A DNA stretch of 64,000 bases from assembly GCA_050613775.1 (NCBI GenBank), contig JBODTK010000016.1, positions 620,001-684,000 on the forward strand, written 5' to 3'. Made by a program: the position numbers and the translations under genes. Of this stretch, positions 27,967-59,039 are shown in pieces. The notes below the pieces were generated by a model. That model made no database searches. It was given only the letters and a program-made list of their open reading frames with translations, and had not been told where the DNA came from. The stretch comes from Neocallimastix sp. 'constans' (Eukaryota). The stretch's first letter is position 1. Each line of letters begins with the position of its first letter.

Positions 27967-28027
27967 ATTCAAGGCTTTGTTAAATAATTTAATTAATAAA
28001 TAATATTAAATTTTTTTTTTCTAATAT

Positions 28028-28045
28028 TCCCCGATATCTCCACCA
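28028..28045 (-). promoter_or_regulatory. Primer binding site, tRNA-Ala-like
   Basis: Identical to the A PBS; 7 nt from the LTR. Confidence 0.85.
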
Positions 28046-28843
28046 TAAATTATGTTATGGTTCGGGTTTTATTAGAATTTTTATTTAATTATTTATTTTT
28101 AATATTTTTCTGTCTACATTTTAATTATTGAAAAACTTCACTTATTTATACTTTTTGAAAAAAAATAAATATGTAAAGCCTTTCTACATTTTATTATCAT
28201 ATTTAAAAATAAATATTTACTATTACTAATTACTTAAAATTTTATATTAATTTAAATTAACTAATTCATAAGTATTTTTATTTTAATAAATTTTGTTTAC
28301 ATAATTTTATATTATTTTTCATATACTAAAACTAAATTATTTAATATATACGAAAAGTAACAAACAAAATTTAAAAAGATTTTACAGAAAAATAAAGTTA
28401 TTTTAATCAAGAATGTTAATATAATATTCTTATATTTTATATAAAATAAATTTAAAAACTATAATATATTTAATATTTATTATTAATCAATTAAGATTTG
28501 ATTTTATTTGTGGGGAATAAAAATATAAAATAATCAATTTAAAAATAAAATAAAATACTAAAAAGAATACAAGTTTAATATTGATACAATATAATAATAA
28601 TATAATAATATATTTGAAAATAAAAATAAAATATTAATATTGATAATAAACACTTTAATAAAATAATAAAATTTAAGGTTAAATTATAGATATTGATATT
28701 AATAATAAAAATATAAAATTATTGATAATGTTTTAGAAACTTTTAATAAAAATATAAAAAAAAATATATTTAGAAAATATTTTAGTATAGAAAATATAGT
28801 AAAGTAATATTAATTAAAGAATAATATAATGGATTCTAAAGTA

Positions 28844-29579
28844 TGTTAAAATTAAGATATAAAATAGTTTTATGATTAATAACGTTACTAGGTTAATATG
28901 TTGAATTATATATTAATAATCCAACAATAATTAATTAATAATAATATAAAAATAATATAAGATAAATAGTTAAGTTATTTAAACACTTAATATCTAAGAA
29001 TATTTTAAATAATAATTTCTTTGAAGGATTTATGAAAATATTTATTTATTGAATTATTAGTATATAATTATTGTAATTACAATAACCTTACAAAGAACAT
29101 AAAAGATAGATTTTTACATCTTTCTTTTATACTTTGTAAGTTACATAATAATAATATTTAATTATAAGATATTAATAATATAGTAATATGAATATTAATA
29201 AAATATTAAGATAATAACAATATCGATATGTTTAAAATATTTAATATAACTAAATAAATTTAATTTATAATTATATAATTAATTTGAATAATTAAAAATA
29301 GTAGTTAATATATATGATGTAAACATATATATAAACATAATATAAATAAATACATGTGACGTCATATGTAGATAATTGAAATTTTTAATATAAATCTTAT
29401 TTACTAATATTCTCAGAATTATTAGGCCTTAGATAATTCTTTAAATATTAAATAAGAATTTATATTAATTATTAATTATTTAAATATATATATTATTTAT
29501 AATTAAATAAATAATATTTTTTAACTATTGAAATGTAAATAACTGAAATTGAGATTTCAATTCAGTTATAATTTCAACA
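28844..29579. mobile_element. Solo LTR family N nested in the B 5' LTR
   Basis: TGTT..AACA termini; 5-bp TSD AAGTA (28839-28843, 29580-29584). Confidence 0.88.
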
Positions 29580-29634
29580 AAGTAAGTTGAAATTCTAATT
29601 AATAATCCATTATATGTTCGTTCTTTACCATCTG

Positions 29635-38441: not shown

Positions 38442-38592
38442 TATTAACTTTATGTTTATTACTAATTAAATATTATTATTATTATTACTCAATATATAAT
38501 TTTCTTTTTATATTTTTTTTGTTCTATTATTCATCCATCAATCTTTGAAATTTTCTAATTTTATAATCTTTTCATATTATTACTATTTTGGG

Positions 38593-38609
38593 TCCTGCAT
38601 AGCTCGCCA
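38593..38609 (-). promoter_or_regulatory. Primer binding site of C, probably tRNA-Arg (TGGCGAGCTATGCAGGA)
   Basis: TGG start 5 nt from the LTR; ..GCTCGCCA resembles tRNA-Arg(ACG) 3' ends. Confidence 0.7.
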
Positions 38610-39410
38610 GATTTTGGGACAACACAGGTAATTATTAAAATTTATTATAGTAATAATTTATTCGATTATATTTATTTATCTTTATTAAATAATTTTTTAT
38701 TTTTGAAAGAGAGAGTTTTTAATTATTTTATTTTCATAATTTCTTAAATATTTAATATTCTATCAATTTAATTTGTTAGTATTAAAAATTTTAATTTAAT
38801 TGGTTTCAAATTTATATATAAAATTATTATAAATCATTAATATAAATTATTATAAAATTTTAATATAAATTATCACAAGATTTTAATATAAAACTATTAT
38901 AGAATATTAATATAAAACTATTATAAAATATTAATTGTAACAAATCTTAATGTTACTTAAGATTGTTATAAGTTTTTTTACACAAAAGGTTCTCGACACT
39001 AAAGTAATTCAAAATATGTTTTATTAAAATAAGTTTTTTTTTTATTAGTAAAAATATAAATTATTATTTTATTAATTAATCATTGTAATATTTTAAATTA
39101 CTTTAAAATTAATTAATAAAAGCACAAGTAAAAATATTTTATTATGAAATTTTACACCTATTTATAGTTTTTCAGGAAAATTAATTATTTTAAGTTATCA
39201 GTTGTTATTAGTAATTATTAGAAATAAAAGAAAATTAAAGAAAATTAAAGAAAACAAGTTTTCTTTCTAGAAAATGAATCTTAGATAAAAAATGATAAAA
39301 AATATTAATAAAATAGATTTTTCTAGTTTTATCGGTTCAATTGTTTAACCGATAAACACTAGTAATTTCTTTAATATTCTAGTTATAATAAATAAAAAGT
39401 TATTAAAATT

Positions 39411-39483
39411 TGGAAAGAGTGGTTGTAGAACCCTAAGGGTTCAGCCCGATGGTTATGGTAACTTACCATTGAACCATAGTTAC
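39411..39483 (-). promoter_or_regulatory. tRNA-like Pol III internal promoter in LTR M copy 1
   Basis: A box TGGTTCAATGG at +8..18; degenerate B box GGTTCTACAAC at +52..62; CCA at +71..73, then T runs. Confidence 0.65.
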
Positions 39484-39498
39484 TAATTTACTAGTTAT

Positions 39499-40509
39499 TG
39501 GTAAAGAATGAATTAATAACCTTTATTTTATTATTAATAATTCTTTACTAAATTGTACTTTCCTATATTCTTCATAACCTAAACCTCATTGTAAATTTAA
39601 TTTATTTTGATATAAATTAATTTTAATTTGTAAATAATGTAAATAAATTTTAATTAATCACTTTATTGTTATATTATTAAATATATGTATATATTAAAAT
39701 ACAATTGTAAATATTAAAATTATACTTTTAAGATACTAAATTATTAAAAATATTAATTAAATATTATTATAAAAATTATTATAAAATTATTAAAATTATT
39801 AATTAAATATTATTCTAAAAATTATTATAAATTATTAATATTATAAAATTATTAAAATTATTAAATATTATTATAAAAATTTATTTATTATAACTATTAA
39901 ATATTATTATAAAATTATTAAGATTATTAATTAAATTTATTATTAAAAATTATTATTAAAAATTATTACTTATTATAAAAATTATTATTTAAATATTATC
40001 AAATTTATTAATTAAATATTATAAAAATTTTATTTTATTTTGAAAATAATTACAAGTATTATTTAAAATAATTAAAGATTATTAAATTTATTATATTAAT
40101 CTTTAAAAACAATTTATTTAACTTAAAAATATTAAAGAAAATAGTAAAAACTATTTTCTATATATTTATTTTATAATTATTTTTAATTAAATTATATTTG
40201 AATATTATATTATTATATTTATAAAAATTAAAACAAAAATGAATTATTGATATAAAATTAATTCAATAATTCTATAAAATTACTTAAATTATAAACAATT
40301 AATTATACTTTAAATTTATAAAAAAATATAAATATTGTAACAATTTCTTAAAAATTAAATATGTGTACTTTAAATAAAAAACTTTTATATTAATAAAAAA
40401 AAATAAATAATTTTTAATCAAGAATTATTTTTTTTAAAATCAAAGCAGGGTAATACCCGTCCCCCCCTGCTTGATTTTAAATATCTAAGTGTCAACCCCG
40501 AGTCTACCA
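39499..40509 (+). mobile_element. Solo LTR family J, inverted, inside M copy 1
   Basis: Reverse complement of 29635-30654; 4-bp TSD TTAT (39495-39498, 40510-40513). Confidence 0.93.
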
Positions 40510-40526
40510 TTATGAGTTTCGTTACA

Positions 40527-41048
40527 TGTGTAAAATATTTGTAAAATATTTAATAATTTGAATACGTATTTAAATGTAATGTAATATAAATTATTGTGGA
40601 TAAAAATGTTTTCCAAATTTTTAATATAAATTTAAATGTATTCCGAATTATTAATTTAAATAATTTTCTCAAAAATTTATGACTAAATTATTTGGAGAAT
40701 TTACGTAACAATTACTCAGTTGAATCACGAAACTTCATAAATTAAAAAATAATTAGTCATTAATTAGTTAAATTAAAATAATTAAAGGAATATTGCCTTT
40801 TCCGTTTGTTTACAAAAACTTGCCGTTTTGTTTACTTGTCTTTTAAATTATAGAAATTCTAAAAATAAAAATAGCAAGTTGTGGTTTAGTAAATTGGTTT
40901 TCACAACTTGGCAAAATTTAAATTAAATATATGGATAGAATATATTTAATCATATAATTAATGAATTAAACTCTAAATTTTCTTCATAGAAAATTTTAGA
41001 AAAATTAGATAGTTTTAAATAGGATTTATATTAAAATAATTCATAACA
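40527..41048. mobile_element. Probable truncated LTR fragment (family P)
   Basis: Ends ..CATAACA, five bases before a TG; contains hairpin caagttgtg/cacaacttg; single copy only. Confidence 0.35.
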
Positions 41049-41053
41049 TTTCA

Positions 41054-44000
41054 TGTAATTTATTATATAATGTAATTGATAATATAAAATAATATGTTTA
41101 TGTAATTTATTAAAATTTATTTTGATTTAAAACTTTATTTTGAAAAAGTATAAAAAGAGTTAATTTTTCAACTATTGAACGATAGTTGGAAAATCGTATA
41201 GAATAGGAAAATCGTATAGAATAGGAAAATTTAAATTTTATTATTAGTTTCGTAACTATTATTAGAATAGTTACTTTCTTATAAAACAATTATATTATAG
41301 TTTGTAAAACCTTAACTGCTAGTGGGAACTCCGGAAAGGACCCTGCGTTACCCAGTTAAGTGGTTGTTGAAAATTAGTTAATAAATAAAATAAATAAATA
41401 AAAGAAATTAAAAAAGAAAATAATTAATTAAATAATAGAGGTTTAAGATATAGTGTTATTAGTGTAGTAAAGTTAGTTTAGAATAGCCACAAACCTAGAC
41501 TTGATAAGTATTTTATTTTACAACATGGTCCTCCTCTAGGATTCGGATACCAGACGAATCTCAAAACTAGGCTAAACTATACTAAGAAAATTTTATTTAA
41601 TTATTTTAATATATAAATTATTTTAATAGTTATTTGGTGTAAAATTTCAATACATGATAAACATAAAAATACATTATTAATAATAAGGTTACATGAATTT
41701 AAATAATATTTATATTAATAAGTAAAAATAATAAAGATTATTGATATTGATATTAATAGAAATAAATTTGATATTAATAAATATAAATTTTTGTATAATT
41801 AATATTATAGATTCATTTTCTAAATATAAGTTTATTTGTTTGATTTATTAAATTTTTTGAGTATTTCTGGACAGTTGAGGTTTTCTTCCGGTTCCCAAGA
41901 TGCTTCAGATAAAGGATATCCTTTCCACTTAATAAGATATTGAATCTTTCCATAATGTTTTCTTTTATCAAGTATTTCTTCTACTTCATATTCTTCTTCA
42001 TCATTAACTATAATTGGAGGTGGAGGTTCCTTTTTTCTTTTAAAATTGTCTTTGTAGTATGGCTCAAGTTCTGATACATGGATAATTGGGTGTATTCTTA
42101 TATTTTTTGGAAAATCAATTTTGTATGTTACTGGAGAGACTTTTTCAATTATTTTATAAGGTCCTAACTTTCTTGGTTTTAATTTTTTATTTTTATTTCT
42201 TAATATGAGTGAACTGTTTATCCAAACTTTGTCGTTTACTTTGAATTCAGGTGCTTTAATTCTGTGTTGGTTGGCGAATTTTTCTTGTTTATTTCTTGCT
42301 TGTTTTAAATTTTCTTTTAATTGTTTGAAAAGTTTCGCTAAGTTTGTTGTAAATTCTTCAGCACGCGGAACATCAATAGAACTTGGCACAGCTGGTGAGA
42401 AGCGAGGGTTGTAACCATAATTTGCGTAGAAAGGTGATTTATTTAATGATTCTTGAATAGAATTGTTGTAGCAGAATTCAGCAAGGAATAGATAATTATG
42501 CCAATTTGAACCTTTAAAATTAGAGTAACATCTGAGAAATTGTTCTACAACGGAGTTCACCCTCTCCGTTAAACCGTTAGTTTGATGGTGAAAGGGAGAA
42601 GAAAGTTTCATTGAGATATTGAGAGTTTTGCAAATAGAAGTCCAGAATTTAGAAGTGAATTGAGTACCTCTATCGGAAAGAATTTCATTTGGTAATCCAT
42701 GAAGTCTGAAAATATGAGTCATGAATGCCTTAGCAGTATCTTCATAAGAAGGAACGTTAGGAAATGGGATGAAGTGACCCATTTTTGTGAATCTATCGAG
42801 AACAACAAAAATACAAGTATATCCATTAGATGAAGGGAGATCAGTGATGAAATCCATGGAAAGCGAAGTCCAAGGTCGGTCAGGAATTTCTAGTGGGTTC
42901 AGAAATCCATAAGGTTTGTGTCTAGAATCCTTTGAACGACAACAGATTTCATAAGATTTAATATAGTCTTTAATATCTTTTTGCATAGATGACCACCAAA
43001 AGTCACGATTGATTAAGGAGAAAGTTTTCTTGAAACCAAAATGACCAGCAGATGGGGAGTCATGACAGATATTTAATACGGAAGAACGACAGTTAAGGGG
43101 AACATAAATTTTTCCATCAAAGAGTAAGAAGTTGTTGCTTAAAGAAAATTTAATAGATTCTGGGAAGTCTTCTTTAAAGTTGAGTTTTTTGCAGATTTCA
43201 TTATAATATTTATCTTTCTTGTATTCATGGAGTATTTGATCATTTAAAGAGGCAATGGAAGTGGTAGCGCAAAAATTTTCAGGTTTTAAGACGTTGAAAG
43301 GAATGTCAGAGGACAGTTCTTCTTCATTTGATGCATAATCAGGTCTTCGAGAAAGTGCATCAGGTTTACCATTAGCAGATCCTGCACGATAAGTGATTTT
43401 GAAGTTAAATTCTGATAAGAAAAGAGCCCAACGAACAAGTCTTTGTGACATTTTCTCGGGTTTCTTTTGGTATAAAAGGTTACGATGGTCAGAGAAAATA
43501 GTGAATGGGATTGAAGTTCCTTTTAAGAGATGTCTCCATTGTTCTAAAGCTTCAACGATTGCTAAAAGTTCTTTATCATAAATTGGGTAGTTTTTCTCAG
43601 CAGCAGTAAGAGATCTTGAGAAGAATGCAATAGGATGAATTTTATTGTCCTTTTGAGAAGCTTGGGAAAGTATAGCGCCAATAGCAAAATTACTACTATC
43701 TGTTTCGACAAGAAAGGGTAAATCACGATTTGGGTATGCGAGTACAGAATCAGAAGAAAATTTGGATTTTAAATCGTCAAATGCTTTTTGAGTTTCAGAT
43801 GTCCAAACGAATTTCTCATTTTTCTTCAAAAGTGAATGAAGTGGATGTGTTAAAGCCGCAAATCCTGGAATAAAACGTCTGTAATAGTTGGCAAGTCCTA
43901 AGAAGGATTGGAGTTGTTTTATATCAGTGGGAACAGGCCATTCAAGAATAGAGGAAACTTTTTTAGGGTCCATAAGGATACCATCAGAGGAAATTCTATG

Positions 44001-45134
44001 TCCAAGGAAATCCAAATAGGGAATGCAAAATTCACATTTCTCGAGTTTAGCGTACAAACCGGCTTTTCTGAGTTTTGAAAGAACTTTAATAAGATGTTCA
44101 TAGTGTGTTTCTAAGTCAGGAGAGAAAATTATAATATCATCAATGTAACAAAAGACAAATTTTCCGAGAAAGTCTTCGAGAACGTCATTGATAAAGTGTT
44201 GGAATACGGCAGGAGCATTCTTCAGACCGAAAGGCATAACTAAGTATTCAAAATGACCATATTTGCAGTTAAAAGCTGTTTTGTACTCATCTCCTTCTTT
44301 TATTCTGACAAGATTATAGGCAGATCGAAGATCGAGTTTTGAAAAGACTTTTCCTTTGGCAAGGTGTTCGAGCATGTCATTGATTAATGGCAAAGGGTAA
44401 GAATCGCGAATTGTAATATCGTTCAAATGTCGGTAGTCAACAACCATCCTTAATTCACCATTCTTTTTAAGTACAAAGAAAACGGGTGCACCAGCAGGGG
44501 ATTTTGATTTTCTTATGAATCCTTTTGCTAACATTTCATCTATATATTCTTTAAGTGTAGTAGATTCTTTTTCTGTTAAAGGGTAAATAGGTCCATAGAA
44601 AAGAACAGTATTAGGCATAAGTTTTATTTCACAATCATAAGGTCTATGGGGAGGTAATTCATTCGCATATATTTCGCTAAAGACATCCTTAAATGGAAGT
44701 AATTTCTTTGGTAACGATTTATTTATTTTATTACTTTCTTTATCTTCTTCTTCTTTATCATTCTTTTTAATAGTATTTAAAGGAACATAAGTAGTGAAGG
44801 CGCTTGGAAGTACAAGACAATTGGAAATACAATAGTTGGATTTGAAAGAGAGTTCTTTTGAGGCAAAGTCTATAGTGGGATTATGAGTTTCTAGCCAGTC
44901 AATGCCTAAAATAGCACAATACGAAGGAAGGTCAACAACATAGAAACTTGTTTTACATATATGGTTTTTATATTTTAAGGATATTGGTGCAGTTTTACCT
45001 ATGATTGACTGAATACCGCCGATTCCAGATACATTAGGGAGATTACATTCACTAGAGTAAGGAATATTGTTTTCTTTTGCGAAGTATACATCCATTAAAT
45101 TAAGTTGAGAGCCGCAGTCCAGAAGAATTTAAAC
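41054..45134 (-). mobile_element. Chromovirus-type Gypsy element family D, 5'-truncated (putative 3' LTR 41054-41525)
   Basis: PPT agaggaggacca (41526-41537) followed by TGTTGTA; far LTR boundary is inferred. Confidence 0.8.
41832..45128 (-). CDS. pol: Pol of D: PR-RT-RH-IN-chromodomain
   Basis: ILLDCGS just upstream of the ORF-track start; YIDD; TDSS; GPY; C-terminal [28 protein letters not shown] chromodomain. Confidence 0.93.
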
Positions 45135-48100
45135 TATTAAGATTAAATAAAAATTAAAATAAAAATTAAAATAAAAATAAGAATTTAATACTTATCTTTA
45201 AAATTAGAGCTTATTATAAGAAAATATAATAGATCTTAAATGAATGAGAAATAAAATATGTTTTTATCAAAAGAACTTTATTAATCTATTTTATTATTAA
45301 ATATTTTATTATTTTTTTTGACAAATTTTAAAATAACTATTTTATATTAATTGAAATATTAATGTCTTTTATTGTTATTATATTTTTCTTAAAATAATAA
45401 CTCTTGATTTTCTAAAGACGAAAATCAACAGCTATTTATATTTTTACAAAAATAAATGTATTTTTCTAATCTTAACAATGATTCTTTCCAGAAAAAGATT
45501 AGAAGAAAAAACTGGAAAGATTTTTGATCAATAATCTATACTTATTGATCATCGTGTTATTAAATAAAACCAATTATAATTAATCGGAAAAACTTTAATA
45601 ACCGATTTTAATAACTAAAAGAATTAAAAAGAAAAAGGATAAAAAAGAGAAGGATAAAATAATGCAGAAATTTTATTAAATACATTTTTTCTATGAAATA
45701 ATACAGAAGTTATATTAAATACATTTTTTCATATAACAATTAATACATTAATTGGTATAATTGTTTTTAAATGAAATAAATTTTTTTAAAGAATAATAAT
45801 TATGAAATAATTATTAATTAATAAGAAATAGAAATAAATTATAAAAATTTATATCAATTTCTTACATTGCACCTCCTTATGATGCATCCACTAGTTCCGG
45901 ATTTCTTTTTGTATAAGGCTCCAACTGGGAAACATGAAATACCGGATGTAAATGTAGATTTTCTGGCAAATCTAAACGGTAATTCATTCTCTCCCTCACT
46001 TCCAAAACTCTAAACGGCCCAAGATATTGTGAAGAAAGTTTTTTGGATGGCTCATTTGTAAAATAATATCTTTTTAGCCATACAAAATCATTTACTTTGA
46101 ATGAAGGTCCTGTAGCTTTCTTCGAATCTCCAAACTTCTTAAAATTTTCTTTAGCTTTTTGTAAGTGTCTCTTCAATGCTTCGAAATGTGAGGACCAATC
46201 CCTGGTTAAAGCGGAAGCATTATCCTTTAGAAGAACAGGAGGCGACTCTATAGTACAGGAAGGATTAAAGCCATAATTAGCAAAGAATGGTGATTTACCT
46301 ATGGACTTATGCAGGGAGTTGTTATAGGCCATTTCACATAAAGGAACATAATAACACCATTCATTTTGGGACGTTGAACAATAACATCGGAGATACTGCT
46401 CAATTACTGAATTTGCACGCTCAATTTGTCCATTGGATTGTTGATGGTGAGCTGTGGCAAGTCTTGGATTAGCGTTAATAGCAGAGCACAACGAAGTCCA
46501 AAATTCTGATGAAAATTGAGAACCATGGTCCGAAACAATTATTTTAGGGAATCCATGGTAGCGAAAAACATTGAATAGAAGCATTTTGGCCGTCAGATCA
46601 GCGGAGGGAACATCAGAACAAGGGACAAGGTGAATCATTTTGGTCAGATGGTCAGCTACAACCATTAAACATGTACAATCTTGCGAACTGGGAAGTGAAG
46701 TGATAAAGTCAACGCCAATTATTTCCCAAGGTCTACTGGGAACCGGTAAAGGTTGTATTTTACCATATGGCTTGTGTCTTCGGAGCTTATTTCTTCCACA
46801 AACATCGCATGAGGATATGTAATTCTTGATGTCTTTTTTCATATTTGGCCACCAATAATTTCTTCTTAATTTTTCAAAAGTTTTATCTACTCCTTGGTGA
46901 CCATTAGTTGGACCATCATGATACATATTCAATACCTTGGCCTTGAGTGAAGAAGGGACAATTATTCGGTTCTGAAAATGCAGAACCCCTTCGACGATGG
47001 TAAAAAGCGAACTTTTTACTTCATTTGACCTTGTTTTAATTTTATTGAGTGTATCCTTACAGTATGTGTCAGACTTCTGAGCTTCAATTAAGGCTTTTAA
47101 GTTGTCAGAAGGTGCACAACAAAATATCTCTTCATCTAACAGAGGATAACCTTCATTGGTCGAATCCTTGTTGACGTAATCAGGGCGTCTTGATAAAGAG
47201 TCAGGTTTACCACTCTTAATACCGGAGCGAAATGAAATCCCATAAGTGAACTTTGAGAGAAAGAGACTCCATCTAATTTGTCTTTGGTTTAATTTTTGAG
47301 GTTGCTTAAAATATAACAGATTTCTGTGATCTGTGACTACTTGTACTGGGAATTTAGCACCTTCTAGGTGATGGCGCCAGGTTTCAAAAGCTACGATTAT
47401 TGCAAGTAATTCCTTGTCGTAAATAGTATAATTGATTTCAGAAGAAGACAAGGACCTAGAGTAGAAAGCAACCGGATGGAGTTTATTGTCTTTGTTACTA
47501 ATTTGAGATAAAACACAACCAACAGCGAAATTGCTAGCGTCCGTTTCTACAAAGAATTCTTTCTCTGGATCTGGATAAACTAGGATTTCTTCCGTCGTAA
47601 AAGCTTCTTTGAGTTTGTTGAAAGCATTGTCTGCCCTAACATCCCAAATGAAGGAAGAGTTCTTCTTCAAAAGCCGACGGAGAGGTTCAATGATCTCGGC
47701 AAAATTATTTATAAACTTCCTATAGAAGTTACAAAGTCCTAGAAACCCTTGGAGTTCTTTAATATTTTTTGGGATAGGCCAGTCGATAACAGCTTTAACC
47801 TTATTCTTGTCCATTGAAAGACCATTTACAGACACCACAAACCCTAAAAAAGTAGTTTCTTTAACATGAAAATCACATTTTTCCAATTTCACGTAAAGAC
47901 CATTTTTAATTAGAAGCGACAATATTTTACGAACATGTTGAATATGTTCGTCCAAACTTTTTGAATAAATTATTATATCATCCAAGTATACTTGAACAAA
48001 TATGCCAATTGCATCAGATAAAACATCTTGGATGAATCTTTGAAACACCGAGGGGGCATTTCTTAGGCCAAAGGGCATTACCAGATATTCAAATTGGCCT

Positions 48101-49979
48101 AAAGGTGTTCTAAAAGCAGTTAAATATTCATGACCTTCTTTAACGCGGACAAGGTTATACGCAGATCGAAGGTCCAAACGAGTGAATATTACTGCCCCCT
48201 TAAACGATTCAATCAAGTCAACCAATCTTGGGATAGGGTAGCTATTCCTAATTGTAATAGAATTTAATTTCCTATAATCAACGCAGAGTCGTAAGCTTCC
48301 ATCTTGTTTTTTTACAAACAGGACAGGGGCACCAGCAGGTGATTTTGACTTCCTTATAAACCCCTTATCTAAATTTTCTTTTAAATAGTTTTTAAGAGCT
48401 TCCATTTCGACAATCGTAAGAGAGTACACAGGTCCATAATATAATTGACCACCAGGGACTAGGTCAATTGATATATCATATTCACGATGTGGAGGCAATT
48501 TGTCTGCCTCTTTCTTTTCAAATACAATTTTCAAATCTTGATAGTATATGTTGATAATTTCATCTTTATCAGTTTCATTTACTAAAGCGGCGCAAATATC
48601 TATATCAAAAAGTTCGTCACCAGATATTGAGTATGTTTCTGTTTTATCTTTTGATACATTGTTGTTTTTGTTGTTTGGCAAAATTGCAGCAGTAACATCT
48701 TTAGAGTGAAAAATGAATTTATTCCCTTTTGCTGAAGGGCAGTGATTTCCGCAGTGGTTCTCTAAAAAGTAAATCTTATTATTTTTGAAATCTACGTATG
48801 GCATATGAATACTCAACCAATCTCTTCCAAGGATGGCTGATATTCCCTGAAGTTGTAAGGTAGCTACGTAGAATTCATAGCTTTCCTTGTGGTCCATGAA
48901 GGCAAGGCCTAATTTCTTCGTTACTTGTCTTATATTCATACTTTTGTTGTTCGGTAACTGAATGTTCAATGGTGAAGACAAGGTAGATAATTGAATTCTG
49001 TTGGCGTTTACAAAGTCTCTACAGATGTAACTTCTTGCAGAACCAGAATCAATAAGGACGTTTATTTTCATTTTCTTTCCATTATTATTTAATATAAATG
49101 TAGTGGTCATTGAATTTGAGGTGTTTGGTGTATAGTTAGCCGAAAGGATGCTTTCTTTGTTTTGATTTTTTCTGAATTTCTTGTGTACTTTGTTGTTCTT
49201 GAATTCCTGTTTTGGATGCTCATCTCTTTTTCTTTTTTGCGACTTGTTGGTTGACTTATTTGTTTTGGCTAGGTTGTTAATGAAACATTTTTTATCGATG
49301 CTGATGATTGAATTTGTTGCTTCAAAAAGGGTCTTTGGTCTTTCGATTTTATCGAACTCCAGACGAACCTCCTCAAGAAGGCCTCTCCGGATAAGGTCAA
49401 TAAAAACATCGTCGTTCCAACCAATTCTTGACGCTAATCTTCTGAATTCAATAGTAAAGAAAGCTGCCTTTCCGAGGTGAAGCTGTTTAAGGTTCAAAAG
49501 TTCTTCAATTAAAACAAACCTTTGTTCCTTTGTATCTCCAAAATTTTCTAACAATAACCTCTTAAATTCCTCATAGGTGAGAGAATTAAGTGTTCCATCA
49601 GCCTTGAGAGATAATCCCTATTTTTTAGCTGGTCCATAAAGTTTGCTGATAACGAAAGCGTTTCTAAAGTTGTCATTTGGGAACGAATTGGCATGTTCAT
49701 CAAAGAACAATTCACACTGTTCCGTTAGTTCGTTTAGATTAAGCTTTGTGTTGTCTTCATTGCGGGCCAACACACCGTTAGGTGAAAAAAATGTGGGAAT
49801 AAATTCGGTAATTGCAGAAATTAATTTTGACGCTTCAGCTTCCTTAGTAGCTTCCATACTGATTGAATTCATTAAAATACTAAATAGACTTTTTTAATAT
49901 AGATCTTTAAAATATCTTTAATATATCTTTAAAATATCTTTAAAATATCTTTAATATATCTTTAATATATTAATATAAT
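45135..49979 (-). mobile_element. Gypsy element family E inserted in D; 3' LTR ~45135-45866, 5' LTR lost
   Basis: PPT aaggaggtgcaa then TGTAAG at 45866; left LTR boundary is approximate. Confidence 0.85.
45877..49872 (-). pseudogene. Single-frame gag-pol of E with one premature TAG (49618-49620)
   Basis: ORFs 49618-49872 and 45877-49554 are in frame; LIDSGS, YLDD, TDAS, GPF; no chromodomain. Confidence 0.88.
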
Positions 49980-50539
49980 TGTAACAAATCTTAATGTTAC
50001 TTAAGATTGTTATAAGGTTTTTTACACAAAAGGTTCTCGACACTAAAGTAATTCAAAATATGTTTTATTAAAATAAGTTTTTTTATTAGTAAAAATATAA
50101 ATTATTATTTTATTAATTAATCATTGTAATATTTTAAATTACTTTAAAATTAATTAATAAAAGCACAAGTAAAAATATTTTATTATGAAATTTTACACCT
50201 ATTTATAGTTTTTCAGGAAAATTAATTATTTTAAGTTATCAGTTGTTATTAGTAATTATTAGAAATAAAAGAAAATTAAAGAAAATTAAAGAAAACAAGT
50301 TTTCTTTCTAGAAAATGAATCTTAGATAAAAAATGATAAAAAATATTAATAAAATAGATTTTTCTAGTTTTATCGGTTCAATTGTTTAACCGATAAACAC
50401 TAGTAATTTTTTTAATATTCTAGTTATAATAAATAAAAAGTTATTAAAATTTGGAAAGAGTGGGTGTCGAACCCTAAGGGTTCAGCCCGATGGTTATGGT
50501 AACTTACCATTGAATCATAGTTACTAATTTATTATTTAT
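49980..50539 (-). mobile_element. LTR family M copy 2, interrupted by element A2
   Basis: Near-identical to 38936-39498 and broken at the same nucleotide. Confidence 0.9.
50452..50524 (-). promoter_or_regulatory. tRNA-like Pol III internal promoter in LTR M copy 2
   Basis: A box TGATTCAATGG at +8..18; B box GGTTCGACACC at +52..62; CCA at +71..73, then TTTT. Confidence 0.7.
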
Positions 50540-51507
50540 TAATACAGAATGAACAAATAATACTAATTGTGCTAGAATAATATAAATTATTCTAACCTTA
50601 TAGATTATTCTATTCTATATAATTGGAACTTTCCAATATTCTTCAAATATTACTAAATAGAAATCTTAAGTTAATAAATCACTAATTAACTTATAATTCC
50701 TTTTTGAATTATCGATCCGATTCCATTATAATGTATTAAAAATCTTTAGCCAAGAATATTGTCCTTGCCCACTTAATATATTAATATTATATTTCTTTTG
50801 TATTATGTTATATTGAAAATAATCAAATCTATTTAATTAGTTATTAAAATTTTCGTTATCAATTTAAATTTATTTTTAATTACTAAATTTAACTAAACCA
50901 CAATAAAATATTCTGTATAATCTCTTTATTTTTATTTTATATATATTAGTATTAAACTATTATTAAATAATTAATAATTCAATAATATATAACTACTATT
51001 TATAACAATAATATTATTAACTAAAATAATAATTCAATTTCAATTTAAATGTTTTATTTATAAAAATAATTAGTAATTAGTTTATTAAAAAAATAGTTAG
51101 GCTTTACAAATTTTAATTTGATAAAAAATATAAATACATGTAATTTTAGTGAAATAAAATATAATCAATAACTTTCTTTTTTATTAAATAAATAATTATA
51201 TTATTATTTTTCTTTTATAAATTTAAATAAATAAATATTGATTTTAAAACAAAATTATTTTTATTGTAATTTTATTATTTGTGTTAATTATTATTATATT
51301 CCTAAAATTATATGAACCATACCATGAAAAATTGGTGGAGATATCGGGGAATATAATAATAAATTAATACATTGGGGATAAAATTATAATATTAATAAAT
51401 AATTTTTCTAATAAAACAAATAATTTTTTTAAAAAACAATTTTTATATTTTTAACTAATTATTATTAATTGTTAAAAATATTAATTAATATTAAATTAAA
51501 CTAATAT

Positions 51508-51673
51508 TCGTGCATAGATTTCCGGGTTAAGTTTATCCTACATAGTAATTGGGCTAGTAGGCTCTGGACTGCTATTTTTTATATTGAAAATAGTAACCGT
51601 GGCACACGCGTGGCATGACACCTTTCAAGAGGTAAGCTGCACGTCAGACAGTGTGTACTATCAGATTGCACGA
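51508..51673 (+). ncRNA. Conserved structured leader RNA motif (A2 copy; another copy at 57741-57906)
   Basis: Same motif as 17423-17588. Confidence 0.7.
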
Positions 51674-51829
51674 TTATTATAATTTAATAAATGATTAATA
51701 ATAATAAATAATTAATAATTTTATTAGTTAAAAGATTTATTTTTTTTTAATTTTTTTTTATTTTTACTTTTTATAACAATTTATACATTACGAGGTTTAG
51801 CATTCTATAGATACAATAAATTTTATTTA

Positions 51830-52747
51830 ATGAGAACATCCAGTACTTCCAGTACTCCAACAGAGAGTACTCCAGAAAGTAAGCTTAGCTTCCGAGAATT
51901 AAAGAAAGAATTAAAAGATTTTGAAAAGCTTACTAAACAAAACCTAGACATCAATTCCTGGGCAAACGAGTTAAAGGCATGGATAAAATACCAACATATC
52001 AAGGATCCTGAAACTATTTTTACTGCTTGTATATTAACGGCTTCTGGAGAACCAAGAGAAATTATCCAAGAACTAGAAGATGGAAATGACCTTACTGAAG
52101 ATGAAGATTCTGATTTCGATAGCGATAGTGAAGGAGAAGATGATGAAGAAAGTGAATCTACTACCACCTACCCAAGCCTTGATGAAATCATAAATCATCT
52201 GAAGACTTTCTATGGACTTAAAGAAGATCAAACCAATTTGTTACGAGAATTACGTTCCATGAAAATAAAGAAGAACGAGAAAGTTAAAGATTTTAATGTC
52301 CGTTATAGATCTTTGTACCATAAATTGGATAAAAAGAGAAGAAGAAAAATTAGTGTTTTAGATTATGCAGATTCCTTAACCAATAATCCTGACGCATGGA
52401 GAAAGGTTATGCTTAAAGACCATATTTCTATTACCAAAGCGTTCGCTATAGCCGAAAAAGTTGATCGTTTATCTATTAAAAATAGTACTGAATATTATGA
52501 TAAGACTCATTACAATCTCCTTAACTCTAAAAGTAATTTTAATAAGAACATTTCAAATGATTTTAACAAACCAAAAACCCACAAAAATGTATCTATAGAA
52601 AATATCACTAACAAGATGAAAGAAATGAAAATTAGTACTTGCTGGTTTTGTAGCAATGAAGGACATACCAAACGAAACTGTCCTAAATTAAATTCTATAT
52701 TGGAAAATAACCGCAAGAAGTTTTATGAAAATCATTTAAACCACTAA
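51830..52747 (+). CDS. gag: Gag of A2
   Basis: 305 aa; CCHC knuckle CWFCSNEGHTKRNC. Confidence 0.93.
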   Translation: MRTSSTSSTPTESTPESKLSFRELKKELKDFEKLTKQNLDINSWANELKAWIKYQHIKDPETIFTACILTASGEPREIIQELEDGNDLTEDEDSDFDSDSEGEDDEESESTTTYPSLDEIINHLKTFYGLKEDQTNLLRELRSMKIKKNEKVKDFNVRYRSLYHKLDKKRRRKISVLDYADSLTNNPDAWRKVMLKDHISITKAFAIAEKVDRLSIKNSTEYYDKTHYNLLNSKSNFNKNISNDFNKPKTHKNVSIENITNKMKEMKISTCWFCSNEGHTKRNCPKLNSILENNRKKFYENHLNH

Positions 52748-52767
52748 AAGGGAGTAGAAGCACTCCC
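52735..52767 (+). promoter_or_regulatory. -1 ribosomal frameshift signal
   Basis: T TTA AAC in gag phase, followed 8 nt later by hairpin GGGAGT-AGAAGC-ACTCCC; pol is in the -1 frame. Confidence 0.85.
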
Positions 52768-55700
52768 ATCGTCAAAAAAATTGCTTCAGTCTGCCATCGT
52801 TCCAAAATAGTTGACTTAAAAGAAGATGATGATTATGAAGAAACTGCTGATTTCCAAGAATGTACTACTACGGATTATTACGAAGATTTTGATGATAAGT
52901 CGGATGGTTCCAAAGAATTGAATTACTTAGTAAACGTTATAAAGAGAAAGGCAAATCATAAAGATGAAGAGACTAGTGACCAAAGAGAAAAGAGGGTTCA
53001 CCGTAGTCTAAGAGATGATCCTAAGCCAATAGTTACTCCAGGTTTACGAAAACAAAAAGAAAATCAATTAAGGGGAACATCGCGACCAGTCAAAAAGCCA
53101 ACAACTCAATTACATCCTTCGATTATGGTTCAACCTAGAATAGAAAAAGAAAAGAGAATTGAGAAAGAGCTAAGAGATAAGGAAAGAGCTAGTACTAGTA
53201 CTTCTGTGGAAAATAATAATAATAATAGTAATGTTAATGTTATTAATGAAGAAACTTCTCAGGAAGAAAATAATTCTAAACAAACTTTAAATAAATTAAT
53301 TCAAGAAAAATCATCAGAAAAGTCAACTGAAATTATGCCAACTAGAATTCCAAGAAGAATACAAATGCAAACTGATTGTGATAGTTATGACGTGATCAAA
53401 GATTTAAACTCCAGTAATTGCAATATTACATTTGGACAATTATTGGACGTTGCTCCAAAGATACGGTCTCAAGTATCACAAGGACTTAAATTAGAAAAGA
53501 ATAATACTAAAATTTCAGGTGCAGTGGATAATATGTGTGCTACTACAATAATAACGAACAATATAGATCATACATATAAAAGTAAACATCATGAACCACA
53601 AGAAGATGATATTGCTATGGTTGATGTAATAGTAGATGGAGTTCGTGGTAAGGCTTTAATAGATTCATGTAGCAACTTAAGTATTATCACAAAGCAATTT
53701 TTAGATAAATTACCTTATCAGTATGAACCTATAGGAGTTAGTGCAGGACGAATACGTTTAGCAACAATGAATGATGATTACTCAGAAGATGTGTTAATCA
53801 AAGTTCCCGTAAAAATTAATGAACTAGAACTACTTGTTACGTGTAGAATTATAGACAAGGAGGATCCATTCTATGATATATTAATCAACCTCAAAACTCA
53901 AATTGATAACCAGTTATTTATACATCCAATTAGATATAGTCTTTGTCGATTTAATGATCAAGGTTTAATTGAAGAAATTACACCTATTAATAATGAATAT
54001 GATGACGAAGAAAAATTATTATGTGTAATCAAAGCATTGAATCACCAAGAAGCTAAGCAACAATTGAAAACGATTGAAGGATTACCACCCATAAAATATA
54101 TATATGACACAGTTTTTCAAAGTACAATTAATTCAAATTATAGAGAAGCTATTACTAAATTACTTGAAGAATATATTGATATAATTGCAACTTCTTCTGA
54201 AGAATTAACACCTTCAGATTTATCACCACACAAAATTATTCTTAAGGAAGGAGTTAAACCTATTAAACAAAAATTTTATCGACTTAGTAAATTAAAAACA
54301 GATATCTTAAAAGAAGAATTAACCAAACTCATATATAAACGATTAATTGAACCTTCATGTTCAGAATGGTCATCACCAGTAGTACTTGTGCCTAAAAAGA
54401 ACGGTAAATGGCGCCTGTGTATTGACTATAGGAAAGTAAATGAAGCAACTAAGAAGGATTCTTATTCTTTACCAAATATTGAGGAAATTTTTGATAGCTT
54501 AGATGGAGCAAAAATCTTCTCAACATTAGATCTTTATTCCGGTTATCATCAAATATTAATGGATGATGATAGTGTTGAAATCACTACCTTTACAACTAAG
54601 TTCGGAAACTACCAATTCAAGGTAATGCCCTTCGGTTTAACAGGTGCTCCAGCTACATTCCAAAGAGAAATGAACCGTATACTATTTCCCTTAATAGGAA
54701 AATGCGTCTATAACTTTATAGATGATATTTTAATCTACTCAAGAACTGAAGAAGAACACCTAGAACATCTTAAACAAGTCTTAGAAATATTCAAGGAACA
54801 TAAGTTAAAAATCAATATCGAAAAGTGTTCTTTCATGCAAACTGAAGTAGAAGTACTTGGACATAAAGTATCCTCAGAAGGTTTAAGTCCATTGGAAAAC
54901 AAAGTTGAAGCTATTAAAGAATGGAAGGCTCCCTCTAACATTCATGAACTTCGATCATTTTTAGGAGCCATTGGATATTATAGAAATTTTATTAAGGACT
55001 TTGCAAAAGTTACTGCTCCTCTCTGCACTCTATTAAGAAAAGGTATTAAGTTTGAATGGAAAAAGGAACAAGAAGAAAGTTTTAAAATTCTTAAGGAAAG
55101 ATTAATCAATGCCCCAATATTAAGATTTCCTAGATTTGATAGAGAATTTATTATAAGAACAGATGCTTCCTATGATGGAATAGGCGGTGTGCTTTTACAA
55201 AAGGATGATGAAACTGGAAAGGAGCATCCGGTTCATTATATTAGTAGAAGTTTATCTAAATCGGAAAAGAATTATGGAATTACGGATCTAGAAGGTGCCG
55301 CTCTAATTTACTGTATTAATAAATTAAAATCTTATATTATGGGAAATCCTAAGCAAACTATAGTATATACAGACCATAGACCCTTAATCGGATTACTTAA
55401 AAATAAGGAACCACAAAACTCTCGCCATACAAGATGGTGTTTGACTGTCAGTATGTTAGGAATTGATTTACGATATGAAGCTGGGAAGAATAATGTTGTT
55501 GCAGACGCTTTATCAAGAATGAAAAATGAAAAAGAAAAAGTTATCTTAACAACACAAATTATCAAAGAACAAGATGAAAACCTGCTTTCAAGAACCATTA
55601 AGGAATTTATTGAAGAAAAATTTACGACAATTGATGGTGTGGACTACTTTGTTGATGGCAATAATTATAGAAAATTAGTTACAGATACAAAAGAAAAACT

Positions 55701-56739
55701 TCAATTAATTTTTCAAGCGCACAGTATAGGACACGAAGGCTATTACAAGACATATCAACGTTTGAAAAAGAGCTACTATTGGAACAATATGGTTAATGAC
55801 ATTAAGCGAATTATAGGTAAATGTGAAAAATGTCAATTAAATAAATCTCAATCATACCCTGAACCAACGGAAGATAAACCAACTGAAGTGGAAGGACCAT
55901 TTACACACTTAGGATTGGACATTATAGGACCTCTAAGTAAAACCAGAAATAATAATCAATATATAATCGTTGTGGTTGATTATTTTACTAAATGGGTTGA
56001 GGCAGAGCCCACTGAAAATGTTACTTCTCAGGATGTGATAAAATTTTTAATTAATGTATTTGCTCGACACGGTGTACCTCAAATTATCACTACTGATAAT
56101 GGAACACAATTTACATCAGATATGACAAAAATCTTCCTTGATTTATATGATGTATATGTTAAATTTATCACTCCATATCATCCTGAAAGCAATGGTTTAG
56201 TTGAGAATCGTAATAAAGAAATTGGAAAATTATTACGATTACTAGGAAAACAACACAAAGAGTGGGATGAAATTTTACCATCTGCACTTTGGGCTTTAAG
56301 AACTACTAAAAACTCAATTACCAACCATTCAAGCTTTGAATTAGTTTATGGAAGGGAGGACCAACAACCTTTTGACATTGCTGCCAGACCAACTAAGGGT
56401 ATAAATAAGTCTTCTGACGAAATTCTACTGGAAAAATTTGTATCACACTACCAATGGGTAATGGAGGCCGCATCTAATATCAAAAATGCTTCGAAGTATT
56501 GGGCTACTAGGAGAGAAGAAAAGACCAGTATGAATCAAGCTAAAAGAATAAAACCAGGTGATTTAGTACTAGTAAGAAACTTTAATCGAACTAAATTAGA
56601 ACCTTACTTTGTTGGACCTATGAAAGTGGTAAAGAAACAATTCAATACAGTCACTTTAGCTGATCCTGCTACTAATATACAAATGAATCGTAATGTTCAT
56701 TTGAAAAATATTGTCAAGTTTAACTCAGCTTCTACCTAG
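52735..56739 (+). CDS. pol: Pol of A2 (-1 frame, PR-RT-RH-IN)
   Basis: Open from T-TTA-AAC to TAG; catalytic motifs present. Confidence 0.93.
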   Translation, partial: FKPLKGSRSTPIVKKIASVCHRSKIVDLKEDDDYEETADFQECTTTDYYEDFDDKSDGSKELNYLVNVIKRKANHKDEETSDQREKRVHRSLRDDPKPIVTPGLRKQKENQLRGTSRPVKKPTTQLHPSIMVQPRIEKEKRIEKELRDKERASTSTSVENNNNNSNVNVINEETSQEENNSKQTLNKLIQEKSSEKSTEIMPTRIPRRIQMQTDCDSYDVIKDLNSSNCNITFGQLLDVAPKIRSQVSQGLKLEKNNTKISGAVDNMCATTIITNNIDHTYKSKHHEPQEDDIAMVDVIVDGVRGKALIDSCSNLSIITKQFLDKLPYQYEPIGVSAGRIRLATMNDDYSEDVLIKVPVKINELELLVTCRIIDKEDPFYDILINLKTQIDNQLFIHPIRYSLCRFNDQGLIEEITPINNEYDDEEKLLCVIKALNHQEAKQQLKTIEGLPPIKYIYDTVFQSTINSNYREAITKLLEEYIDIIATSSEELTPSDLSPHKIILKEGVKPIKQKFYRLSKLKTDILKEELTKLIYKRLIEPSCSEWSSPVVLVPKKNGKWRLCIDYRKVNEATKKDSYSLPNIEEIFDSLDGAKIFSTLDLYSGYHQILMDDDSVEITTFTTKFGNYQFKVMPFGLTGAPATFQREMNRILFPLIGKCVYNFIDDILIYSRTEEEHLEHLKQVLEIFKEHKLKINIEKCSFMQTEVEVLGHKVSSEGLSPLENKVEAIKEWKAPSNIHELRSFLGAIGYYRNFIKDFAKVTAPLCTLLRKGIKFEWKKEQEESFKILKERLINAPILRFPRFDREFIIRTDASYDGIGGVLLQKDDETGKEHPVHYISRSLSKSEKNYGITDLEGAALIYCINKLKSYIMGNPKQTIVYTDHRPLIGLLKNKEPQNSRHTRWCLTVSMLGIDLRYEAGKNNVVADALSRMKNEKEKVILTTQIIKEQDENLLSRTIKEFIEEKFTTIDGVDYFVDGNNYRKLVTDTKEKLQLIFQAHSIGHEGYYKTYQRLKKSYYWNNMVNDIKRIIGKCEKCQLNKSQSYPEPTEDKPTEVEGPFTHLGLDIIGPLSKTRNNNQYIIVVVDYFTKWVEAEPTENVTSQDVIKFLINVFARHGVPQIITTDNGTQFTSDMTKIFLDLYDVYVKFITPYHPESNGLVENRNKEIGKLLRLLGKQHKEWDEILPSALWALRTTKNSITNHSSFELVYGREDQQPFDIAARPTKGINKSSDEILLEKFVSHYQWVMEAASNIKNASKYWATRREEKTSMNQAKRIKPGDLVLVRNFNRTKLEPYFVGPMKVVKKQFNTVTLADPATNIQMNRNVHLKNIVKFNSAST

Positions 56740-57551
56740 CTTGAGTCTTAGCGGGGGCATCTTAATACAGAATGAACAAATAATACTAATTGTGCTAGAA
56801 TAATATAAATTATTCTAACCTTATAGATTATTCTATTCTATATAATTGGAACTTTCCAATATTCTTCAAATATTACTAAATAGAAATCTTAAGTTAATAA
56901 ATCACTAATTAACTTATAATTCCTTTTTGAATTATCGATCCGATTCCATTATAATGTATTAAAAATCTTTAGCCAAGAATATTGTCCTTGCCCACTTAAT
57001 ATATTAATATTATATTTCTTTTGTATTATGTTATATTGAAAATAATCAAATCTATTTAATTAGTTATTAAAATTTTCGTTATCAATTTAAATTTATTTTT
57101 AATTACTAAATTTAACTAAACCACAATAAAATATTCTGTATAATCTCTTTATTTTTATTTTATATATATTAGTATTAAACTATTATTAAATAATTAATAA
57201 TTCAATAATATATAACTACTATTTATAACAATAATATTATTAACTAAAATAATAATTCAATTTCAATTTAAATGTTTTATTTATAAAAATAATTAGTAAT
57301 TAGTTTATTAAAAAAATAGTTAGGCTTTACAAATTTTAATTTGATAAAAAATATAAATACATGTAATTTTAGTGAAATAAAATATAATCAATAACTTACT
57401 TTTATTAAATAAATAATTATATTATTATTTTTTCTTTTATAAATTTAAATAAATAAATATTGATTTTAAAACAAATTATTTTTTTTATTATTGTAATTTT
57501 ATTATTTGTGTTAATTATTATTATATTCCTAAAATTATATGAACCATACCA

Positions 57552-58095
57552 TGAAAAATTGGTGGAGATATCGGGGAATATAATAATAAATTAATACATT
57601 GGGGATAAAATTATAATATTAATAAATAATTTTTCTAATAAAACAAATATTTTTTTGAAAAAAAAAAAACAATTTTTATATTTTTAACTAATTATTATTA
57701 ATTGTTAAAAATATTAATTAATATTAAATTAAACTAATATTCGTGCATAGATTTCCGGGTTAAGTTTATCCTACATAGTAATTGGGCTAGTAGGCTCTGG
57801 ACTGCTATTTTTTATATTGAAAATAGTAACCGTGGCACACGCGTGGCATGACACCTTTCAAGAGGTAAGCTGCACGTCAGACAGTGTGTATTATCAGATT
57901 GCACGATTATTATAATTTAATAAATGATTAATAATAATAAATAATTAATAATTTTATTAGTTAAAAGATTTATTTTTTTTAATTTTTTTTTACTTTTACT
58001 TTTTATAACAATTTATACATTACGAGGTTTAGCATTCTATAGATACAATAAATTTTATTTAATGAGAACATCCAGTACTTCCAGTACTCCAACAG
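57552..58095 (+). mobile_element. Start of a tandem family A copy sharing the A2 3' LTR (PBS, leader, first ~11 gag codons)
   Basis: Repeat of 51325-51863; PBS 57560-57577; ATG at 58062. Confidence 0.92.
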
Positions 58096-58159
58096 GAAAG
58101 TACAATTTAGTAAAGAATTATTAATAATAAAATAAAGGTTATTAATTCATTCTTTACCA
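58094..58159 (-). mobile_element. Terminal fragment of a family J LTR
   Basis: Matches ~30589-30654; followed by CAAA. Confidence 0.88.
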
Positions 58160-58163
58160 CAAA

Positions 58164-58952
58164 TGGTATGGTTCATATAATTTTAGGAATATAATAATAA
58201 TTAACACAAATAATAAAATTACAATAATAAAAAAAATAATTTGTTTTAAAATCAATATTTATTTATTTAAATTTATAAAAGAAAAAATAATAATATAATT
58301 ATTTATTTAATAAAAGTAAGTTATTGATTATATTTTATTTCACTAAAATTACATGTATTTATATTTTTTATCAAATTAAAATTTGTAAAGCCTAACTATT
58401 TTTTTAATAAACTAATTACTAATTATTTTTATAAATAAAACATTTAAATTGAAATTGAATTATTATTTTAGTTAATAATATTATTGTTATAAATAGTAGT
58501 TATATATTATTGAATTATTAATTATTTAATAATAGTTTAATACTAATATATATAAAATAAAAATAAAGAGATTATACAGAATATTTTATTGTGGTTTAGT
58601 TAAATTTAGTAATTAAAAATAAATTTAAATTGATAACGAAAATTTTAATAACTAATTAAATAGATTTGATTATTTTCAATATAACATAATACAAAAGAAA
58701 TATAATATTAATATATTAAGTGGGCAAGGACAATATTCTTGGCTAAAGATTTTTAATACATTATAATGGAATCGGATCGATAATTCAAAAAGGAATTATA
58801 AGTTAATTAGTGATTTATTAACTTAAGATTTCTATTTAGTAATATTTGAAGAATATTGGAAAGTTCCAATTATATAGAATAGAATAATCTATAAGGTTAG
58901 AATAATTTATATTATTCTAGCACAATTAGTATTATTTGTTCATTCTGTATTA
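58164..58952 (-). mobile_element. Solo LTR family A, 15 bp upstream of tRNA-Pro
   Basis: CAAA TSD (58160-58163, 58953-58956); reverse complement of 56763-57551. Confidence 0.95.
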
Positions 58953-58967: not shown

Positions 58968-59039
58968 GGCTCAATGGTTTAGTGGTATAATTCTCGCTTA
59001 GGGTGCGAGAGGTCCCGGGTTCAATTCCCGGTTGAGCCC
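58968..59039 (+). tRNA. tRNA-Pro (AGG)
   Basis: Acceptor GGCTCAA/TTGAGCC, anticodon arm CTCGC-TTAGGGT-GCGAG, T arm CCGGG-TTCAATT-CCCGG; T-run terminator follows. Confidence 0.97.

Follow-up and report, generated by a model that had tools for sequence, protein, structure and literature searches.

How do two different families of retrotransposons, both members of a group that stacks in front of a transfer RNA (tRNA) gene, come to sit at one and the same base inside the long terminal repeat (LTR) of a third? The question is raised by a stretch of 64,000 nucleotides (the window) from Neocallimastix sp. 'constans' (assembly GCA_050613775.1, contig JBODTK010000016.1, positions 620,001 to 684,000 of the forward strand; coordinates below count from the first base of the window). 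Two copies of an LTR named M, here M1 and M2, carry near the end of their unique 3′ region (U3) a unit of 73 nucleotides (nt) with the A and B boxes of a tRNA-type RNA polymerase III (Pol III) promoter, and 15 nt upstream of that unit M1 holds an LTR of family J and M2 an element of family A. It is probable (about 0.78) that the M unit is bound by TFIIIC and TFIIIB in the manner of a tRNA gene, and that the Ty3-like integrases of J and A were guided there, to a point 15 nt upstream. An earlier note on this DNA had proposed such a landing pad, and the geometry supports it: two families, the same base, the same spacer and orientation as at the tRNA gene, and a clean target duplication in M1.

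The tRNA-type unit of M and the insertions in front of it

According to both ARAGORN and Rfam, the window (11–37% guanine plus cytosine (GC) in 2-kb bins) contains a single tRNA gene, tRNA-Pro(AGG), and upstream of it lie some 50 kb of nested Ty3/gypsy sequence formed by two groups of elements. The group that stacks at the tRNA gene includes A, F, J, K and three unnamed LTRs, all on the minus strand, head to tail, with U3 towards tRNA-Pro and 4-nt junctions, and the pol of A lacks a chromodomain and has its best PDB match in Ty3 (7q5b, E 9e-106). The other group includes M, O and the solo LTRs P and Q, with TG..CA ends and, wherever both flanks remain, 5-bp duplications. The closest named relatives of A pol and M pol are gene models of Orpsp1 (50% and 67%, respectively), which we take to be an anaerobic gut fungus; most of the closest relatives of both come from gut-type contigs, and the public runs that contain words of M include faeces metagenomes.

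The pseudo +1 of the unit lies about 28 nt inside the U3 end of M, at 39483 in M1 and 50524 in M2. Counted from it, the A box occupies +8..18 and the B box +52..62, just where they had been placed before, 44 nt apart as against 43 nt in tRNA-Pro; CCA stands at +71..73, as it also does in the tRNA-Pro gene, and T-runs follow. Boxes at tRNA-like spacing and a T-run terminator make up the layout of a type-2 Pol III promoter. The unit is nevertheless no tRNA gene: as had been claimed, it forms no cloverleaf, ARAGORN and Rfam covariance models match tRNA-Pro only, and Rfam searched at E values of up to 10 gives four sub-threshold matches, none of them to a tRNA. The predicted fold consists of two local hairpins (z about -2.0), with each box as one hairpin arm. 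A sub-threshold match (E 4.1) at 50452–50485 on the plus strand concerns a plastid 3′-untranslated-region family that presumably coincides in part with antisense sequence of a tRNA-Ser end, and offers a weak lead on the origin of the unit.

An exact pair of A and B boxes occurs in the window only at tRNA-Pro, with two overlapping readings of the A box, and in M2. No such pair arises in 5000 shuffles of the M LTR or in 20000 of its GC-rich 95 nt, and 100 block shuffles of the window hold a mean of 0.0. Neither M copy carries both boxes at their best: the B box of M1 departs at two letters, and the A box of M2 is changed at +10, a position at which it differs from M1, as it does at -7 and -10 in the spacer. 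Public read-set contigs, compared over the U3 part of M only in data sets X1, X5 and X8, help to polarise these changes. The majority letters at 39423 and 39427 in the three DNA data sets are those of M2, so the consensus form is that of the M family and M1 is the mutant. The M2 changes at +10, -7, -10 and +115 have no matching variant row among the public contigs listed and look private to that copy. Minor B-box variants are found at +56 (46 of a depth of 3517 in X1; 148 and 20 of 832 in X8) and at +60, and two X8 contigs, about 87% identical as judged from summed depths, appear to alter only the free position +60 of the B box, their A box lying below the reporting limit.

At M1, M2 and tRNA-Pro alike, 15 nt separate pseudo or mature +1 from the inserted LTR, and the M position hit by J in M1 and by A in M2 is the same base. 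Both inserted elements face the unit with their U3, as is seen from the polypurine tract that precedes the A terminus at 56763 and, in public contigs, the J terminus, and they are the only plus-strand J or A sequences in the window; the earlier observation that J and A are inverted relative to the stack at these two sites alone is therefore upheld. Two random insertions would share an M base with a chance of 1/576, and both would fall in an 11-nt window with this orientation with a chance of about 9e-5, this width having been chosen since the overlapping 4-nt stack duplications suggest spacers of about 15–24 nt at tRNA-Pro.

Table 1. Features of the M copies, their insertions and the tRNA-Pro reference target (positions in the window)
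Feature	Position	Strand	Remarks
M1 main part	38936..39498	-	U5 (unique 5′ region) end at 38936; sits in 5′ LTR of stack element K
Terminator-like runs of M1	39394..39408	-	T4 at +76..79, T5 at +86..90
M1 73-nt unit	39411..39483	-	A box 39466–39476, B box 39422–39432
TTAT target duplication	39495..39498	+	Promoter-proximal copy; partner 40510–40513
J solo LTR	39499..40509	+	Inverted relative to stack, U3 facing unit, 15-nt spacer, TTAT on both sides
M1 U3 remainder, 13 nt	40514..40526	-	Terminal inverted repeat matches 38936; in three public data sets the empty site runs on into these 13 nt
Solo LTR P	40529..41522		5-bp duplication (40524–40528, 41523–41527); at junction of M1 LTR and polypurine tract
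M polypurine tract	41526..41545	-	X5 contig joins M U3 end straight to tract letters
M pol open reading frame	41832..45128	-	Protease part, reverse transcriptase, RNase H, integrase, Tf2-type SH3, chromodomain
Element O	45129..49872	-	Cut 3′ LTR, gag-pol; M2 adjoins its leader
M2	49980..50539	-	Truncated at A insertion; U3 remainder lost
M2 73-nt unit	50452..50524	-	A box 50507–50517 (private change at +10), consensus B box 50463–50473
Full-length A element	50540..57551	+	Ty3/gypsy, no chromodomain; 2 substitutions between its LTRs; inverted, U3 facing unit, 15-nt spacer
Partial second A internal region and J tip	57552..58159		A part to 58103, deletion-joined to U3 tip of stack J LTR (58104–58159)
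A solo LTR	58164..58952	-	Duplicated CAAA at its flanks; ends 15 nt before tRNA-Pro with U3 towards the gene
tRNA-Pro(AGG)	58968..59039	+	Reference target

As judged from its coding region, M is the LTR of a protein-coding Ty3/gypsy family with a chromodomain, that is, of a chromovirus. It is about 576 bp long, has TG..CA ends with an adjoining polypurine tract, and contains TATAAA at +318. M1 is the 3′ LTR of the element with pol at 41832–45128, a point that the earlier note had overlooked, because the M end, the polypurine tract and the open reading frame (ORF) follow in order and the X5 contig joins the end to the tract. The ORF of 1098 amino acids (aa), reached from the M1 polypurine tract, shows the order reverse transcriptase, RNase H, integrase with a C-terminal chromodomain (PF00385, E 4e-17; PF24626), and its Pfam domains comprise those three enzymes together with SH3_Tf2-1 and Chromo. 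The gag of this element has been lost at the junction at 45128. Its 16 best relatives are 68–88% identical, most of them with gag, and those at 72–88% are mostly 1260–1430 aa long, a gag-pol measuring about 1400 aa. None of the M copies in the window keeps both flanks or the leader, where a 5-bp duplication and the priming site would lie. The pol of O is 44% identical to that of M, and the gag beside M2 is 22–30% identical to M-family gag, which rules out M2 as a plain 5′ LTR of the element of M1; homology between M and the O LTR was likewise ruled out, their alignment scoring no better than shuffles.

Since M1 and M2 differ in their U5 flanks, the gag beside M2 is only 22–30% identical to that of the M family and each junction shows another family with that family's own terminus, M1 and M2 are not one duplicated locus, and a single ancestral insertion fails to explain both. 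A single insertion followed by rearrangement, which the earlier note had named as the circumstance that would undo its proposal, is improbable.

Competing explanations and the reason for the unit

If the M unit acts as a landing pad, host TFIIIC and TFIIIB would load on its 73 nt as on a tRNA gene, and the integrases of J and A would follow by contact with TFIIIB, inserting 15 nt upstream. Several papers describe elements of such a mechanism. Ty3 needs boxes A and B plus TFIIIB, ignores sites bound by TFIIIC only and uses the tRNA relic ZOD1 (PMC5911963); measured from the mature +1, insertion averages 15 bp for DGLT-A and lies at about 15 bp for Ty3 (PMC5006619); in the Ty3 structure TFIIIB lies upstream and the start site is where the cut is made (bioRxiv 10.1101/2021.07.27.453949); and TRE5-A targets bare A and B boxes without tRNA context (PMC5391098; PMC3159450).

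Several observations weigh against this interpretation. There are two occupied sites, which both belong to a single, much rearranged stack and lie less than 20 kb from a genuine tRNA gene, and the preference of J and A for tRNA genes is read from one tRNA locus. A at M2 begins at 50540 right after TTAT, its far duplication having been removed by a later deletion, and the M2 spacer carries two changes in 15 nt. The B box of M1 is damaged by two private changes (+57, +61); it qualifies once two B-box mismatches are allowed, as does one further site in pol, and at that setting 0.57 sites are expected per shuffled window. At tRNA-Pro the stack seems to use spacers of anything between about 15 and 24 nt, so that 15 is not the sole setting. 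No occupied M site outside the window is found among the public contigs listed, although short junction contigs may escape alignment. Finally, none of the 10.4 million reads of RNA run X24 aligned here, which makes it no test of transcription; RNA runs X3 and X16–X20 do contain words of M.

The integrases of J and A might instead recognise local DNA sequence or an LTR end and owe nothing to Pol III factors, which would suit the distance of 17 nt that both insertions keep from the M U3 terminus as well as the way in which stack elements insert beside each other's U3 ends. However, the spacers share little, with TTAT at M and CAAA at tRNA-Pro, and the distance to an LTR end varies, being 4 nt in the stack and placing the insertion inside the LTR in M, whereas the distance to the A box is constant at 22 nt; we regard this explanation as improbable. 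Quite improbable, too, is a rearrangement artefact, in which a lone insertion, or at M2 a junction left by a deletion, mimics two targeted events. Deletion junctions are present in the neighbourhood (45128 and 58103), as are a tandem A, a stack with mixed duplications and inverted A LTRs at 56763 and 58164 with 0 substitutions between them, and two of the eight nt before the TTAT-side end of A differ from M1. Yet the two junctions hold different families, each with its own terminus, recombination between LTRs preserves junctions and creates none, and a deletion would have had to end at both the first base of A and the M nucleotide that J occupies.

What the unit would produce, if anything, bears on two further explanations. 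Any Pol III product would be an RNA of about 90–100 nt ending at the T-runs and distinct from the genomic RNA. The earlier note had instead suggested that M may make a CCA-ending RNA of about 75 nt, whose 3′ end might be complementary to the primer-binding site of M, and in its general form, a CCA-ended small RNA priming reverse transcription of M or another element, this draws on the CCA at +71..73 and the T-runs behind it. That CCA, however, lies where the body of a tRNA gene ends and recurs at the same coordinates in the tRNA-Pro gene, the two M copies are the only places in the window where the 9-nt complement of the 3′ end occurs, and the primer-binding sites of A, F and K do not match it. 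One loose end in X8, at 39398 (3 contigs, agreement 0.59), is weak and lacks CCA, and Helenus elements show no such complementarity in the available text of PMC10886601, so the primer idea fares poorly and is very improbable. Least probable of all is that the unit serves as the promoter of M's own genomic RNA, as has been proposed for Helenus and shown for Cassandra. Its sense orientation near the 5′ end of the LTR and the Helenus precedent (PMC10886601) speak for it; but T4 and T5 come directly after the unit, runs of at least five T number five in the LTR and four in the 3.6 kb of M internal sequence, and M encodes a long pol, with relatives having a gag-pol of about 1400 aa, while autonomous elements must use Pol II, as the same paper argues. 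Because T-runs follow, the unit is hardly the source of M genomic RNA.

Why M keeps the unit is a separate matter. We tentatively favour, at below even odds, a barrier against silencing: a chromodomain element would be expected in silenced repeat clusters, where a site for TFIIIC/TFIIIB on the upstream margin of the LTR would shield its Pol II promoter, and the landing pad would be a by-product. That TFIIIC sites can act as boundaries is noted in PMC3159450, and M may be a further case. A possible explanation that we rank behind the barrier accepts the same landing pad and holds that the unit is useless to M, being a captured piece of a tRNA or short interspersed element that still binds TFIIIC and TFIIIB while decaying. 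The six polarised private changes of M1 and M2 are all from G/C to A/T, and the unit and spacer account for five of seven substitutions (p = 0.037 with G/C sites allowed for, a weak clustering); the depth table and the loose end at 39398 hint at M-like LTRs that differ here, and a distant M-clade element, L110, has no near-consensus B box in the 1 kb upstream of gag, a stretch in which its LTR limits are not defined. On the other hand, boxes, spacing and T-runs are kept in a unit whose middle has no tRNA fold, and the B-box core appears kept in the relatives of about 87% identity.

The earlier note had gone further and let M spread mobile target sites. This goes beyond the data, since the tRNA-Pro stack contains both of the occupied copies, and at least nine of the contigs listed, with loose ends at the insertion site (seven in X1, one in X5, one in X8), all read the empty site (agreement 0.82 in X1). 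It is rather doubtful that the chromovirus uses the tRNA promoter as a built-in boundary, carries a TFIIIB site along and so seeds targets for the tRNA-targeting guild in repeat clusters, a passenger LTR in the U3 of a 3′ LTR, such as J in M1, being copied too; one transposon would in that case engineer the niche of others.

M and the stack in relation to known elements

Both tRNA-type boxes in LTRs and the targeting of A and B boxes outside tRNA genes are already known. The earlier note had offered Cassandra as a loose analogue; Cassandra and Ajax do have a Pol III promoter inside the LTR, but it is of the 5S type and the elements are short and non-autonomous, whereas Helenus (TRIMp3; Kojima 2024, PMC10886601) is closer, being already tRNA-type. 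Like M, Helenus has in its LTR a tRNA-like sequence that includes conserved boxes A and B, yields no functional tRNA and is found in fungi; the Helenus unit does not match its own primer-binding site. Unlike M, it is non-coding, 311–1263 bp long and, in fungi, dependent on Copia; it is described from Pucciniales and Agaricomycetes and is thought to be transcribed through by Pol III, whereas M has terminators right behind its unit. In the text consulted, that paper mentions no case of another element inserted at the unit, and six anaerobic-fungus genera looked for in its supplement are all absent from it (PMC10886601). M is not a Helenus member, although its LTR resembles one, because the defining features of a miniature terminal-repeat retrotransposon (TRIM) fail: the A and B boxes are in the LTR, but the interior is not short (up to about 1.3 kb) and non-coding, and mobilisation in trans is not called for, M encoding its own reverse transcriptase and integrase in gypsy order.

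The stack itself, with A and J, resembles Ty3, Tj1, Tca8, Tyl3/Tyl6 and DGLT-A in its Ty3/gypsy order, in insertion about 15 nt upstream of the mature +1 (seen for A and J at one tRNA locus) and in stacking (PMC5911963, PMC5006619, bioRxiv 10.1101/2021.07.27.453949). It differs from Ty3 in having duplications of 4 bp instead of 5 bp, in the TA rather than TG with which A begins, in its single orientation and in belonging to another fungal phylum. ZOD1 for Ty3 (PMC5911963) and the A/B loci of the Dictyostelium rDNA palindrome for TRE5-A (PMC5391098, PMC3159450) are described as A and B boxes without a tRNA fold that attract tRNA-targeting retroelements, as M probably does; those are host loci, whereas the M target is borne by the LTR of another retrotransposon.

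In the literature searched (full text; subscription papers and Repbase lie outside this scope), no such unit was found in an autonomous protein-coding chromovirus, and the open full text likewise yielded no tRNA-targeting LTR elements landing at an LTR-borne unit and no tRNA-targeting elements reported in anaerobic fungi. M shares with fungal chromoviruses, presumably those of the Tf1/Tf2 type, the reverse transcriptase, RNase H, integrase, SH3_Tf2-1 and Chromo domains, and differs from those described in the tRNA-type promoter at the start of U3. If the landing pad is real, the two insertions are a natural footprint of TFIIIB loading by an LTR-borne tRNA-type promoter, which was left unvalidated in the Helenus paper, and the range of such promoters, hitherto short non-coding TRIMs, widens to include a protein-coding chromovirus, in which, with genomic RNA excluded, another purpose is needed. 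It would also offer "safe-site" elements a route by which to leave tRNA genes and let nested inverted repeat clusters grow and rearrange. The window moreover shows about seven Ty3-like families that stack at a tRNA gene, a guild for which the same searches gave no precedent in this fungal group.

Beyond the window, scans with the M pattern gave 0 matches in viral contigs, 0 in prokaryote genomes and 26 in metagenome contigs, all 26 of them chance matches in sequence of 37–70% GC. Related-locus scans with M pol and A pol found nothing in viral contigs, and 59 distant loci at 26–32% identity were left unused. LTR DNA of M or A matched 0 of 314 related genomes, protein searches of which matched in 2/314 and 3/314. 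Archaeal metagenome-assembled genome (MAG) records (L027, L028, L100, L102, L108, L110 and L117) contain fungus-like Ty3/gypsy contigs of up to 92% identity to M pol, a probable case of binning contamination. L027 and L028 hold contigs with M-clade genes, neither of which extends to the M LTR, and their other contigs show only short AT-rich matches to the unit.

Other features of the window

P lies about 30 nt upstream of the M1 pseudo +1 once J is set aside, and is possibly a second, looser use of the M1 site, or chance. The inverted A LTRs at 56763–57551 (plus strand) and 58164–58952 (minus strand), 0.6 kb apart and without substitutions between them, while the other LTR of A differs by 2, stand beside the deletion junction at 58103 and reflect a recent conversion or inversion between inverted repeats.

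The stack extends over 8104–38935 and 58104–58952, with about seven Ty3-like LTR families, all on the minus strand and joined by 4-nt duplications. Those at about 8100, 8927–8932, 9723, 10702–10711, 11547 and 58160 overlap as if derived from one target, and would imply spacers near 24, 22, 16 and 15 nt. The duplications on the two sides of full-length A (11551–18568) and of F (19138–29630) are unlike, which suggests recombination between alleles or loci. The U3 of A starts with TA, not TG, in the copies at 50540, 56763, 58952 and 18568, and J, F and L start with TGGT. A and F have in common a TGG-type primer-binding site about 7 nt from the LTR (51332–51350, 28020–28045), followed by a structured-looking conserved stretch (51590–51670 in A, 27830–27960 in F); the primer-binding site of K (38585–38610) is different.

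The pol of F is interrupted by an AT-rich insert of 773 bp (22619–23391) with an imperfect duplication of about 15 bp and no A or B boxes near it; through L028 it shows a weak likeness to A-group LTRs, and there is no clear match within the window. The 5′ internal region of F contains a perfect B box (27383–27393, minus strand) in a T-arm-like hairpin of 5–6 bp; it lacks an upstream A box, nothing has inserted before it, and it represents an unused B-box-only site. The solo LTR Q (28850–29585, 5-bp duplication) lies inside the 5′ LTR of F, about 45 nt from its U3 end. In element L (30659–33240), two LTRs flank an ORF of 282 aa (31182–32030) without a Pfam match, and the element is possibly non-autonomous. 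Left of the stack, at 3220–3939, lies an intronless ORF for a hydrophobic protein of 239 aa, also without a Pfam match.

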